From Eledone cirrhosa (taxonomy: Eukaryota), in NCBI GenBank assembly GCA_964016885.1, contig OZ024743.1, positions 82,522,001-82,586,000 on the forward strand: a DNA stretch of 64,000 nucleotides, read 5' to 3'. Shown here piece after piece: positions 23,880 through 53,731 of this stretch. A program made the translations under genes and the position numbers. Position 1 is the stretch's first letter. The number at the start of each line of letters is the position of its first letter. The notes beneath the pieces were generated by a model. The model made no database searches. It worked only from the letters and a program-made list of their open reading frames with translations, and was not told where the DNA came from.

Positions 23880-24075
23880 ATAGGAACAAGTATGACTCCG
23901 ACGGCAGAGCTCAAGCCGTTTCGACGGCTAATTCTGAGTCCAGAATTAGCCGTCGAAACGGCTTGAGCTCTGCCGTCGGGGTCATACTTGTTCCTATTAC
24001 CCACTCTACTACCCTAAGTATTGAATACTTTGGTGCGTTATGGTCCATCTGGTTCCTTACCACATTTCCTTCGTT
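23880..24075 (+). mobile_element. PLE-type family X fold-back module in (TA)n
   Basis: 57-bp arms 23880-23936 and 23941-23997 (one mismatch) plus a unique tail ending tcgtt(a); homologues at 39604, 43167, 46814 and 53535. Confidence 0.85.
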
Positions 24076-25074
24076 ATATATATATATATATCATTTCTGA
24101 ATTTGTTTAGCAACATGACCCTCCCAAAGCATAACAATATATATATATATATATATATATATATATATATATATATATATATATATATATATATATATAT
24201 ACATTTACATATACATACACATCACCTCCTTCATAATCGTCTCTTAAACTTCCTGACGGCAGAAGAGATAATAAAATTCCAAGGATTTACAATTTTATAA
24301 AAATTAACATCTATAAACTAAATGGAGTTTTCGTTTGATAATTTTCTTAATTTATATTTAATTTCATACACACACACACAGATACATGTGTGTGTGTATA
24401 CACTCATATATATGTATATAGATGTGTGTGTATATGTATGTATATATATATATATATATATATATATATATATATATATATATATATATATATATATATA
24501 TATGTATATATATATATATGTATATATATATATATATGTATGTATGTATGTATGTATGTATGTATGTATTTATATATATGTGTATGTATGTATATATATA
24601 TATATATATATATATATATATGTACGTATATATAAGAGGATATATTGCCCGGCGGTCAAGCTTAAACCGTGCGTGTATATATTGGTGTTTATTTATGTTG
24701 TTTCCTTTGTATGTGTATATATATATATATATATATATATATGTATGTGTGTGTGTGTATGTATGTATATATATATGTGTGCATATATATATATATATAT
24801 ATATATATATATATATTTATATATATGTGTGCTTGTATATATATATTTATATATATGTGTGCATGTATATGTATATATATATTTATATATATGTGTGTGT
24901 GTGTGTGTGTGTGTGTGTGTGTGTGCGTGTGTGTGCGCCACCATCTGTCATGCTATATACACAAGTCTGTTACATCTCCATCTTGTTAGAAATCGAAGAC
25001 AAACAGTTCTGTCGCTTGCTGCCAACATTTCATTATTTTCACTTCATATAATGTTGTTTGTGGTGGTGTTGTTG

Positions 25075-25620
25075 TTGTGACGTTGTTGTTGTTATTATTT
25101 GTGATGTTGTTGTGACGTTGTTGATGTTATTATTTGTGATGTTGTTGTTGTGACGTTAGTTATTATTTGTGGTGTTGTTGTTGTGACGTTGTTGTTGTTA
25201 TTATTTGTGATGTTGTTGTGACGTTATTGTTGTTATTATTTGTGATGTTGTTGTTGTGACGTTAGTTATTATTTGTGGTGTTGTTGTTGTGACGTTGTTG
25301 TTGTTATTATTTGTGTTGTTGTTGTGACGTTGTTGATGTTATTATTTGTGATGTTGTTGTTGTGACGTTGTTGTTGTTATTATTTGTGTTGTTGTTGTTG
25401 TGACGTTGTTGTTGTTATTATTTGTGATGTTGTTGTGACGTTGTTGATGTTATTATTTGTGATGTTGTGACGCTGTTGTTGTCATTATTTGTGACGTTGT
25501 TGATGTTATTATTTGTGATGTTGTTGTTGTGACCTTGTTGTTGTTGACGTTGTTGTTGTTATTATTTGTATTATTTGTGTTGTTGTTGTTGTTATTATTT
25601 GTGATGTTGTTGTTGTTGTT
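25075..25620. repeat. Minisatellite of about 33-39 bp (gtgacgttgttgttgttattatttgtgatgttgtt)
   Basis: Direct reading. Confidence 0.9.
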
Positions 25621-25664
25621 ACTATCAAAGACTACTTTAATTGCAAAAAGAGAGAATGAACCAG

Positions 25665-26185
25665 ATAGTGTGTGAGAGAGAGTGTGGTATGTGGTGTGTG
25701 AGAGAGTGTGTGTGTGTGTGTGAGAGAGAGAGTGTGTGTGTGAGAGAGTGTGTGTGGTGTGTGAGAGAGTGTGTGTGTTGTGTGTGTGGTGTGTGAGAGA
25801 GAGTGTGTGTGGTGTGTGGTGTGAGAGAGTGTGTGTGTGGTGTGTGGTGTGTGAGAGAGAGAGGGTGTGTGTGATGTGTGAGAGAGAGTGTGTGTGGTGT
25901 GAGTGAGAGTGCGTGTGTGGTGTGAGTGAGAGTGCGTGTGTGGTTTGAGAGAGAGAGTGTGTGTGTGTGGTGTGTGAAAGAGAGAGAGTGTGTGGTGTGT
26001 GAGAGAGAGAGTGTGTGTGTGTGAGAGAGAGAGTGTATGTGTGCGTGTGTGTGAGAGAGAGAATATGTGTGTGTGAGAGAGTGTGTGTATATGTGGTGTG
26101 TGAGAGAGAGAGGGTGTTTGTAGTGAGAGAGAGTGTGTGTAGTGGGTAAGAGAGTGAGTGTGTGTGTGAGAGAGAGAGTGTGTGG
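25665..26185. repeat. Degenerate (GT)/(GA) compound microsatellite
   Basis: Direct reading. Confidence 0.9.
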
Positions 26186-27708
26186 AAGGGGTGATATTCC
26201 TTGACAGTAATAATTATCTGTAAGTTAGCTGCCAGATCTGGAGGTATCTTTTAAGACTTTCAACTAATTGGTGGGGAGGGGGAGATGGAAGAGGGGAGTG
26301 TGAGGCTAAGTTGGTCAGGTGATGGGCGGAGAAAGAGATAAAGGGATGGTGATAGAGAGAGGGACTCTGTGTAAGAGAGAGGGTGTGTGTGTAAGAGAGA
26401 GAGAGGGGGGTGACCGACAGCAAGAAAGAACCACCATATTTTCAAGAGAAAAGAAAGACACTCTCCTCTCAAAATATAAAAAATATTCTGAAATAATGGT
26501 TTCAACCAATTGGAGGACATGTCAGAAGGAGAGGATGTCTCCCTTTGTTGGTGGTGGTGGTGGTGGTGGTGGTGGTGGTAGGGTGGTGGTGCTGCTGGTG
26601 GTGGGGGTGCTGGTGGTGGTGGGACGTGTTGGTGTTGGTGCTGGTGTTTGGTTTGGTGTGGTAGGTGCTGGTGCTGGTGTTTGTTTTGGTGGTGGTGGTG
26701 GTGGGAGGTGCTGGTGGTGGTGGTTTTTGTGGTAGTGTTGCTGGGGATTTTGTTACGTTGATTCCGTATGGTGGAGACTTTAGCAGAGGGGAGAGGGAGA
26801 GGGGGAGAAGAAGTAAAGAAGAGAGAGAGGAGGTGGGAGGGGGAGAGGTAAGGAGTAAAGAAGAGAGAGGGGGAGAGAGGTAAGGAGTAAAGAAGAGAGA
26901 GTGGAGAGAGTAAAGGAAAATACAGAGGTAGGTGTCAAGAAGAGAACAACAACAACAGACGTGAAGAACATGAAGACTTTGATAAGAAGGAGTAGTAAGA
27001 GAAGATGGTGGTGGTGGGGAAGATGGCGTAGGTGGTAATGATGATGGAGGTGGTGGTGGTGGTGGTAATGATGATGGAGGTGGTGGTGGTGGTGGTAATG
27101 ATGATGGAGGTGGTGGTGGTGTTGCAGATGTTTGTGGTGGTGGTAATGATGATGGAGGTGGTGGTGTTCGGGATGGGGTGTTAGTGACAACAGCATGATT
27201 TGACAGATGGATTGAGAGATAAAGATGAAAGGAAAGAGATAATAAGTGAGATGTATTGATAAACTAGCACACACACTCACACACACACATACACATATAC
27301 GTGTGTGAGAGAGTGTGCGTGTGTTAAAGTATAGAATATTTTGTGATCTAAACTGTCTTACTTTCGTTCATGGAATAGGCACGTTACGGCAGAATATTAC
27401 TTTGTAACGTGTGTGTATATATATATAGTTTAATAAATGAACAGAGAACAAAAAACAGAGAGGTAGTACAAATGATATTAGTATTAGTTTCACGCTTGAG
27501 GGAAATTTCAGTCTCTCTCAGTTTTGCTGTCGGGCAGAGAATCAGGACACATGAATTATTATTATAGAATAGTTGTAAATAAATCGAAGACGGACAAAAG
27601 TGGATATTCGGTTGTGGGACTCGATCTTACTGCTGACTATATAACAGAAAGCTGTTATTAACGAAACGTACGTACCTGGTATAGTGCTGTTGTATTAACT
27701 GGCCTTAA

Positions 27709-51530: not shown

Positions 51531-52032
51531 AGATAGATAGAGTAGGGAGATATAGAGTAGGGAGATATAGATAGATTAGGGAGATATACATAGAGTAGGG
51601 AGATATAGATAAAGTAGGGAGATATAGATAGATTAGGGAGATATACATAGAGTAGGGAGATATAGATAGAGTAGGGAGATATAGATAGAATAGGGAGTTA
51701 TAGATAGAGTAGGGAGATATAGATAGATTAGGGAGATATAGATAGAGTAGGGAGATATAGATAGATTAGGGAGATATAGATAGAGTAGGGAGTTATAGAT
51801 AGAATAGGGAGATATAGATAGAGTAGGGAGATATAGATAGAATAGGGAGATATAGATAGAATAGGGAGATATAGATAGAGTAGGGAGATATACATAGGGT
51901 AGGGAGATATAGATAGATTAGGGAGATATACATAGAGTAGGGAGTTATAGATAGAGTAGGGAGATATAGATAGAGTAGAGGGATATAGAGTAAGGAGATA
52001 TAGATAGATAGAATAGGGAGGTATAGATAGAT
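51531..52032. repeat. 19-bp purine-rich minisatellite (tagggagatatagatagag)
   Basis: Direct reading. Confidence 0.93.
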
Positions 52033-53167
52033 ACGTGTACGGACAGACAGATGTTGTTGCTAAGGGCAACGAGGGTTATCATCTTCAGACCTATTACTGC
52101 TCGTTGTGATATTCCTCTTCAGTTCTATCTCTTTCTTTAACCCAGCTAAACTTTATAAACTACTTCTCTCTTGTTTTACACATACACATACATGTACACA
52201 CACACACACACACACACACACACACACATGTACACACACATACACACACACACATGTACACACATACATGTACACACACACGTAGATAAGTCTCCGCCCC
52301 TTTTTCAATCTCCTTCACCAAGATTTATGTGTATGTATCTGTGTCTGCTCCTCTGTTAGTGTATACTTATATTTACACACACACACACACACACACACAT
52401 GGGCATCTGTTTGATTTTGAATTTGTGTGTGTGTGTGCGTATACATATGAATGTGTATGTATGAACATCTGTATGGTCGCGTATCTACGAGTGTCTTCCT
52501 GCCCATATCTGTGTGTGTGTGTGTCTGTATGAGTGTGTTCCTGTCCATATCTACGTGTGTGTGTGTGTATTTGAGCATCTGTATGTGCGTTCGAACACAT
52601 ACCTACGTGTGTGTTAGTGCGTGTGTGTATGTTGAGATAGAATATCTGCTACAAACCTGAGATACTACAATACTGAAGTTGTTCTCTGGAGGTTTCAGGT
52701 CAACTACTCTCATTAAAAAGAGATTCTTTCTACGGCTTCCTTCATTCGTCAACGATGTTTATATATCACCACTGCCACCACTACCACATCGCCACTACAA
52801 CTACCACAACAACAACACCGCCTCCATCATCTACATCACCACCACCATCATCTACACCACGCCCACAATCCATCCCAAACACTATCATAGTTAATCCTGC
52901 TGTTACACACACACACACACAGACACACATATGCACTTAGACACATACACCCTACACACATACAGACATACAGACGCACATATAAACACACATACATACA
53001 CACACACACACAGAAACACACACACAGAGAAACACACACACAGTCCCCTATTCTTGCTACCACAGTCGTTCCACTCTCAGATTCCACAAATTAACTTAAA
53101 ACAAACCTTAGTCCCCCTCTTTTCTCAGCAAATGTTTTAATTTAATATTCGAAGAAGTAAGATCTCC

Positions 53168-53290
53168 TGGATTGGCAGAATCGGTAGAGCGTCGATGGAA
53201 ATACCTTGCGGTATTTAATCACCATCCTTTACGCGCACAGTTCAAATCCCACCGGAGTCGATTTTACCATTCATCCTTCCGGGGTCTAAT
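53168..53290 (+). mobile_element. Older Meta-domain SINE, 3'-truncated
   Basis: ggattggcagaatcggtagagc head; agttcaaatccc; ttcatccttccggggtc. Confidence 0.7.
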
Positions 53291-53534
53291 GTATCTGGGA
53301 AGTGTGTAGAAGTGGGTAATATCCTTCCACCCCCAACCCACCCCTATCAGTCAGAAATGGGATAATACCGACGCAAGCATCTTTCAGTGTATATATATAT
53401 ATATATATACTTGCATGGATCCGTAACTCCTACGGGAGTCATTGGGGTGCCATATTAACATACGGAGTTTCTAGGGCATTTTAAAACTCGGTGGAGCCCA
53501 TCTCCTCTCCAGTATATATATATATATATATATA

Positions 53535-53731
53535 TAGGAAAAGGTATGACCCCGACGGCAGAGCTCAAGCCGTTTCGACGGGTATTTCTAGAGTCCAGCA
53601 ATAGCCGTCGAAGCGGCTTGAGCTCTGCCGTCGGGGACATACTTTTTCCTATTTCCCACTCTACTACCCTAAGTATTGAGTACTCTGGTGCGTTATGGTC
53701 CATCTGGTTCCTTAGCGCAATTCCTTTGTTA
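53535..53731 (+). mobile_element. PLE-type family X fold-back module
   Basis: Same architecture and endpoints as 23880-24075. Confidence 0.82.

Follow-up and report, generated by a model that had tools for sequence, protein, structure and literature searches.

Here, we analysed a 64,000-nt stretch of the genome of Eledone cirrhosa (assembly GCA_964016885.1, contig OZ024743.1, positions 82,522,001-82,586,000 of the forward strand; hereafter, the window), focusing on family X, a short repeat present in five copies (c1 to c5; Table 1) that abut TA-repeat tracts, (TA)n, and carry all or part of a hammerhead-like motif. On balance, we somewhat favor the view that the five copies are aborted insertions of a Penelope-like element (PLE), in which two (TA)n-primed complementary DNAs (cDNAs), started from two internal sites of the RNA, were joined head to head after run-off of one or both at an AGTCC motif within loop II of the hammerhead-like motif.

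Fixed ends and a recurrent boundary

Family X was surveyed in the window with blastn and, genome-wide, in public reads and contigs (two raw runs of restriction-site-associated DNA (RAD) reads and two contig sets) aligned to c3, the coordinates of which (43xxx) are the reference for all read and contig positions given below. The window contains five copies and no more (E values down to 1e-54), and about 23,000 RAD reads per run, a number enriched by a cut site within the element, fit the family; family X is very abundant in this genome. All five copies have an end at the short site, TTCCTA/TATA, and four (c1, c2, c3 and c5) have the other end at the long site, T(C/T)GTT/ATAT (the last slash marks the edge), with a tail of 79-80 nt between the two sites; in the long arm of c1, for instance, the short site lies at 23996 and is followed by the tail. 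The window is microsatellite-rich animal DNA, with 148 TA runs of at least 6 units, but TA-run edges make up only 1.4% of its positions, so that the location of all 9 defined 3′ ends next to (TA)n is not due to chance. Thus, the layout proposed in a sequence-only reading of this DNA, five copies with ends fixed at two sites, was borne out by blastn and end comparison. Four of the five copies carry an inverted, 5′-truncated partner at the 5′ end, and the same number have the tail at one end only, that is, one long and one short end. The remaining copy, c4, is not inverted, as had been read, but it begins at about 46803 rather than at 46814, an edge placed by the match to the upstream letters of the loose ends of run X5. 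At 43245, 622 and 585 reads have only the tail, which gives way to ATAT at the short site, and their flanks are mixed; these are either tail-only insertions or cases of TA inserted at the short site.

Table 1. Family X copies and associated features in the window
Feature	Position	Strand	Description
c1	23881-24076		palindrome
c1 mirrored short arm	23881..23936	-	ends at short site (TTCCTA) in (TA)n
c1 long arm	23937..24076	+	from A of AGTCC (predicted +1) through 3′ half of hammerhead-like motif and tail to long site in (TA)n
c2	39604-39803		palindrome
c2 long arm with tail	39604..39742	-	subfamily B; 1-2 nt insertion common to both c2 arms
c2 short arm	39743..39803	+	from A of AGTCC to short site
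c3	43167-43362		inverted, asymmetric junction
c3 tail and ~25 nt of arm	43167..43271	-	ends in CGGC microhomology
c3 forward arm	43268..43362	+	5′ arm of stem II through loop II to short site
Remnant of Hydra-type PLE RT/GIY-YIG C terminus	45487..45696	+	assigned by relatives and CxH tail match
c4	46803..46918	+	not inverted; whole hammerhead-like motif; ends at short site
c4 hammerhead-like motif	46809-46904	+	core CTGAGAA at 46814; predicted cut after 46899
Predicted core promoter in loop II	46828..46863	+	TATA-like at 46828 (-31), YYANWYY initiator with +1 at 46859
c5	53535-53731		palindrome
c5 mirrored short arm	53535..53591	-	subfamily B
c5 long arm	53592..53731	+	from A of AGTCC through tail to long site

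The three palindromes, c1, c2 and c5, have a common turning point: in each, the mirrored arm is linked to the A of AGTCC, with a difference of 0-1 nt between copies, and the turning points fall within 1-2 nt of AGTCC in all three, in agreement with the shared (g)agtcc center claimed for the palindromes at 23880, 39604 and 53535. A second family, Y, with copies at 4600-4760, 5548-5722 and 6460-6660, is hammerhead-bearing and TA-flanked and has the same layout of two ends, tail and inversion; an AGTTT located where stem I has its outer edge is the common start of two of its copies, and one turns at a CCC microhomology in stem II.

The AGTCC point likewise serves as the junction with partner arms that are tail fragments, irrespective of their length. 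Among the rows listed, 19 distinct tail-to-arm joints were recognized (10 in the table of joints and 9 in the table of between-letter positions), 5 further rows being excluded as ordinary arm-to-tail continuity. Twelve of these joints restart at 43303-43307 and 17 at 43300-43309 (binomial P of 3e-7 to 6e-10), and their tail sides are scattered over 17 positions from 43207 to 43262 (55 nt), with no more than 5 in any stretch of 5 nt. Run X1 has 61 contigs that begin at 43303, preceded by mixed letters (agreement 0.38), and contig depth, 0.87 M at 43306, has dropped to 0.13 M at 43299. Given that most of the listed joints restart at AGTCC and that the 61 contigs begin there, AGTCC is a preferred 5′ boundary, whatever its partner. 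Molecule ends at 43310 and 43292 were considered and rejected as biological ends: both fall on AATT and presumably were made by an AATT-cutting enzyme. The depth of loop II in RAD reads is 2-3% of that of the arms, a ratio which, being restriction-biased, is no measure of frequency.

The boundary coincides with a predicted core promoter. YYANWYY is the consensus of the initiator, and TATA that of the upstream box. The initiator has its sole match within positions 46808-46918 of c4, such that +1 is the A of AGTCC, and a TATA-like box is located at -31 in both c3 (TATA-like at 43272, initiator-like +1 at 43303) and c4; thus spaced, the pair of motifs has 5 matches among 71,906 background positions and is present in 0.25% of the loops after shuffling. 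A G directly precedes +1 in c1, c2, c5 and the family Y copy at 4600, which is what copying of the cap would give, and one extra C on the cDNA would explain both the c1 center and the c2/c5 center. Two shared 5′ ends of family Y also begin AGTT. In Penelope, the promoter and start site lie within the pseudo-long terminal repeat (pseudo-LTR; PMC2377424), and TATA and initiator motifs have been noted in rotifer pseudo-LTRs (PMC3846280). Given the fixed boundary, the motif matches and these precedents, AGTCC is probably the 5′ end of the RNA, that is, a predicted transcription start site.

Alternatively, the fixed edge could be that of a processed RNA, generated at the splice-acceptor-like TTTTCATTTAG of c4 or by a nuclease cut, or the edge of a short, truncated source copy, with the joining of two cDNAs retained. 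Indeed, c4 has a pyrimidine tract and AG exactly at the boundary, and Penelope contains an intron that ends at its hammerhead (PMC4209133). However, the contigs that begin at 43303 have no common upstream exon, no GT donor was seen in loop II of c3 or c4, and the boundary is common to several subfamilies, which makes RNA processing or source truncation a rather doubtful explanation.

The number of cDNAs and the origin of the mirrored arms

The most telling copy with regard to the mechanism is c3. Its loop-bearing arm, which includes upstream sequence, ends at the short site, and the tail sits on the other arm; this tail cannot be templated by the loop-bearing arm and therefore requires another cDNA, primed from the long site. 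The family Y copies at 5553-5720 and 6460-6660 have the same geometry, and c2 probably agrees with two cDNAs by one base. Thus, c3-type copies likely contain two cDNAs, as the sequence-only reading allowed in brackets, whereas the snap-back of a single cDNA that it put forward as the general route cannot produce the c3 tail. Priming in TA DNA at two preferred internal sites, another part of that reading, matches the two-site initiation of a lizard PLE (PMC11167929): its protein cleaves both DNA strands and extends them, initiates at two sites within the RNA, by which the tail is defined, and makes use of RNA that has not been cleaved. These activities would supply the chemistry for two cDNAs, and the joining step itself we infer. 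The c3 junction connects the 5′ arm of stem II with the 3′ arm of stem III; inversion through a microhomology in the 5′ arm of stem II was correctly called, but the letters are CGGC instead of GAC. At this point, the sequence is TCGG in c4 and in three loose ends of another organism, c3 having a private C at 43269.

Under the snap-back scenario, one cDNA stalls at the structure of stem-loop II and folds on itself, with the ribozyme fold serving as the signal for second-strand priming. AGTCC does belong to the 3′ strand of an upper helix that is predicted in the loop (GGA/UCC pairing at a probability of ~0.88), c3 and the family Y copy Y6466 (at ~6600) join through ribozyme-stem complementarity, self-priming has been proposed for PLE palindromes (PMC3846280), and c1 and c5 fit geometrically. 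By contrast, snap-back cannot yield the tail in c3, in the family Y copies Y5553 and Y6466 or in the 19 listed read joints; by the time it meets the upper helix, the enzyme has traversed stems stronger than this helix; a stem-based snap-back would keep the loop, which is missing in c1, c2 and c5; and an alternative fold of c4 exceeds the hammerhead fold in stability by 7.5 kcal/mol. Snap-back is therefore unlikely as the source of family X. Complementarity of the ribozyme stems does act as a joining microhomology in a minority of copies, c3 and the one family Y copy, but the ribozyme hairpin is not supported as the signal that it had been supposed to be in c1, c2 and c5, because their center lies ~8 nt outside the paired 3′ arm of stem II, involves ~1 nt of microhomology and is the same point that is used with partners of any length.

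The mirrored arms themselves carry a record of their origin. The arms of the palindromes differ by 1, 5 and 10 letters. Variants are indeed present in both arms, as noticed from the sequence alone, but, rather than being copy-specific, they are letters of subfamilies (c1, c3 and c4 versus c2 and c5), and both states of 43312 T>A and 43356 G>T are common in genome-wide reads. Among the six palindrome arms on which the comparison rests, 3 of the 4 informative columns follow locus or subfamily, and no column follows side; parsimony over the 105 trees requires 22 steps with the arms paired by locus and 25 with the arms paired by side, the best being 21. Furthermore, the long arm of c1 and the forward arm of c3 show 0 differences over the aligned arm, yet their junctions differ. 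Because the arms sort by locus or subfamily, and because identical arms have different junctions, the mirror half likely was built de novo at each insertion, the outcome that the arm-clustering check proposed along with the original reading would favor.

A palindromic master that propagates as a non-autonomous unit, as the sequence-only reading had suggested as its alternative, with the arms subsequently homogenized by conversion or re-synthesis, is not favored by this sorting. It could account for a center common to 3 of the 5 copies within 1 nt, for the same layout of c1 and c5, and for the one side-sorting site of family Y. Nevertheless, the center is common to three subfamily states, each found in both arms, the c2 tail is on the opposite side of the center base, and non-palindromic joints use the same boundary; we accordingly deem the master improbable. 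Still far less probable is a fold-back artefact of library preparation or assembly. The centers are unconfirmed among the raw-read joints listed, but such an artefact is disfavored because the arms differ and because the flanks are not mirrored (best local scores of 7-12); moreover, the ends are asymmetric and fixed, and three runs, although possibly derived from the source sample, contain 90-95% of 19 sampled c1 words.

For the joining of two cDNAs, we envisage the following route. The endonuclease would nick both strands of a TA tract, and each 3′-OH would prime reverse transcription, one at +60 and the other at +140 from the predicted start. The cDNAs that reach +1 would go no further, similar to strong-stop DNA, and their 3′ ends would be joined via 1-4 nt of microhomology. 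If both cDNAs reach +1, the outcome would be a 57-bp palindrome (c1, c2 and c5), and if one stops early, an asymmetric junction (c3 and the read joints). The sequence upstream of +1 in c3 and c4 could stem from a downstream pseudo-LTR, a read-through RNA or a template jump.

Several observations weigh against this account or against the start site on which it leans. The TATA pattern was loosened after the sequence had been viewed, none of the public runs listed as matching family X is an RNA run, and the start site was predicted from motifs; the G that precedes +1 could just as well be part of the mirrored arm. The 19 joints are those among the rows listed, beyond which there are 127 joints and 88 between-letter rows; the between-letter rows come without strand, and calls are drawn towards 43307 by the private T that c3 has at 43306. 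The 15 joints listed include no strand switch at the AGTCC center, and of two palindrome-like center fragments among the between-letter rows listed, one turns ~4 nt upstream of +1; AATT restriction in the arms, together with poor amplification of hairpins, could hide strand-switch joints. Position 43299 is the end point of 855 and 1038 molecules in the two RAD runs, probably owing to a restriction cut in loop-bearing copies, so that, taken together with c3 and c4 (2 of the 5 copies), running past +1 appears to be common. Tail-to-AGTCC joints could also result from center-anchored deletion of one arm of an older palindrome, and c1 and c5, taken alone, are compatible with snap-back of a single cDNA. 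The location of AGTCC on the predicted upper helix and directly after the splice-acceptor-like tract keeps two of the rival explanations alive. As for the arms, one informative column (113) splits the two arms of c5, and the side-sorting site of family Y has C in long-end and T in short-end arms, 2 versus 2. Finally, pattern scans and protein searches found no autonomous partner of family X.

Tentatively, the joining of two cDNAs can be extended to the element as a whole: it might start within its own hammerhead loop II, 60 and 140 nt upstream of the priming sites, such that each insertion would begin with two strong-stop-like cDNAs, with a template jump leading to pseudo-LTRs and tandem copies and a failed jump to palindromes. 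Regeneration of the pseudo-LTR and formation of tandem and inverted repeats in PLEs have been stated to be unresolved (PMC2377424, PMC8557442). If correct, this proposal would explain pseudo-LTR regeneration and PLE inverted repeats in one step and would turn the abundant stubs into a fossil map of the start site. The stubs also provide for a precise prediction, namely, that the turning point follows the 5′ end of the RNA and that the tail comes from the second cDNA. The 57-bp palindromes have predicted DNA hairpins of -53 to -74 kcal/mol and, located in TA runs, may be fragile sites and assembly traps.

The hammerhead-like motif and the protein remnant

The motif of c4 can be drawn as a type I hammerhead, with 5 bp in stem I, G-C plus 6 bp in stem II, 6 bp in stem III, CGAAAC and GUC, and thus has the hammerhead topology (three stems, GAAA box, NUH triplet). 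Its core, CUGAGAA, departs from CUGANGA, and the C3-G8 pair is missing. The same core is present in two loose ends of run X5 (in one of these from TGAGAAG, without the first letter), and a third has CUGACAA; given that loose ends of another organism show CUGAGAA or CUGACAA, the deviant core is a state of the family rather than decay of c4. In a PLE hammerhead, single changes at these core positions abolish cutting (PMC11167929). The Rfam search of c4 gave no hammerhead match, no Rfam hammerhead is among the 150 of 303 matches listed, and the hammerhead fold of c4 is predicted at -18.9 kcal/mol versus -26.4 kcal/mol for the alternative. The description of c4 as the parent ribozyme thus holds for the stems, GAAA and GUC, but not for a canonical core, and the motif is best considered a PLE hammerhead landmark that lacks the core required for class membership. 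All five copies extend across the predicted cut site, which agrees with the use of uncleaved RNA as a template (PMC11167929); as far as the copies can tell, ribozyme cleavage played no visible part in their formation.

None of the five copies contains an open reading frame (ORF) for reverse transcriptase (RT) and GIY-YIG, as would be expected of an endonuclease-positive (EN+) PLE. One forward and one reverse frame are open in all 4 tails despite 4-10 differences between the tails, and a 47-codon open frame in arm plus tail had no homologue in protein searches. Elsewhere in the window, however, there is a C-terminal remnant of such a protein (Table 1). Earlier protein searches gave no match for it, but 136 relatives were found, RT and GIY-YIG-type proteins among them; 1 of the 12 relatives tested has a sub-threshold GIY-YIG match. 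The end of the remnant matches the CxH tails of the Hydra clade (PMC8557442 supplement), elements of which insert in (TA)n and carry hammerheads. The remnant shows that PLE enzymes of this type existed in this genome. On the strand that also carries c4, it precedes this copy by 1.1 kb, TA runs of 3 units being located between the two at 46547 and 46797, and c4 is a candidate for the 3′ end of the element carrying it. With respect to other genomes, exact patterns of family X had 0 matches in metagenome contigs (two scans), 0 in viral contigs and 1, bacterial, in genome contigs, where ~1.1 is expected by chance; the search of viral contigs with a Hydra-type protein yielded no locus, and family X motifs are absent from the searched part of the PMC8557442 supplement.

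Known systems and other inverted structures of the window

The inverted 5′-truncated partner, the one-sided tail and palindromic junctions are known for insertions of EN+ PLEs (PMC8557442, PMC3846280, PMC2377424), and opposite-strand hammerhead pairs 100-700 bp apart have been noted as truncated PLEs (PMC4209133). Family X resembles EN+ PLEs in its head-to-head partner, optional tail at one end and hammerhead-type motif near the end, and the Hydra, Neptune and Naiad clades in targeting (TA)n. Unlike EN+ PLEs, family X copies have no ORF, the tail measures 79-80 nt versus the published 30-40, and the junction is fixed to a few bases across subfamilies, whereas that of PLEs varies by copy. With the Anolis PLE PAc (PMC11167929), family X shares two start sites that define the tail, AT-rich targets, extension of both strands and uncleaved RNA; inverted products, run-off of the cDNA at the RNA 5′ end and head-to-head joining are not addressed in the accessible text of that paper. 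Non-LTR retrozymes (PMC7229834; bioRxiv 10.64898/2026.07.22.740005) likewise are short, non-coding, PLE-related and present in animal genomes, with type I hammerheads, but they form head-to-tail tandem units with complete ribozymes. By contrast, all five family X copies of the window are dispersed singles or head-to-head, with no head-to-tail tandem units, and three of the five lack the 5′ half of the hammerhead-like motif.

A further parallel is twin priming of LINE-1, in which, as reportedly described by Ostertag and Kazazian in 2001, two target-primed cDNAs on opposite strands are joined by microhomology, resulting in a 5′ inversion; one primer is said to be placed at the poly(A) and the second at a variable position, so that the pieces barely overlap. 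The proposed inversion of family X would likewise join two target-primed cDNAs by microhomology, but neither of its priming sites is variable, both are internal, and as many as 57 nt are duplicated between the pieces. Literature searches on twin priming, PLE palindromes and strong-stop DNA found no fixed PLE inversion point at a start site in titles and the beginnings of abstracts, subscription papers being outside the coverage. Thus, what appears to be new here is a junction fixed at the predicted start site within loop II; the inverted partner, the tail and the TA targets have already been published.

The window holds additional inverted structures. A head-to-head palindrome at 61560-61920 has 164-nt arms that are 97% complementary, separated by a 30-nt spacer; each arm contains a whole hammerhead-like motif with a CCGACGAG core and a long loop II, and the two arms share their end site, which is close to TA. 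The palindrome at 5941-6157, which is related to 40591-40722, has a 66-nt short arm, a 77-nt tail on the other arm and TA at both ends; no hammerhead was seen in it. At 8176-8231 and 60714-60964, inverted arms have (TA)n in the middle, not outside, and possibly represent two insertions facing one TA tract. Other fold-backs are located at 51036-51135, 47344-47420 and 53875-53967, one on a fragment of an abundant repeat resembling short interspersed elements and two on other sequence.

Hammerhead-like cores also occur outside families X and Y. The segment 40740-41900 consists of three 421-bp tandem units, each with a 61-nt hairpin and a CTGAAGAG hammerhead-like core and ending in TA; related singles are found at 57996-58153 and 24107-24137, and the array may be a local triplication or retrozyme-like. 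Cores of other families are located at 44865-44906, 48545-48580, 12673-12714 and, on the reverse strand, at 63691-63714 and 7015-7043, most of them shortly upstream of a TA run.

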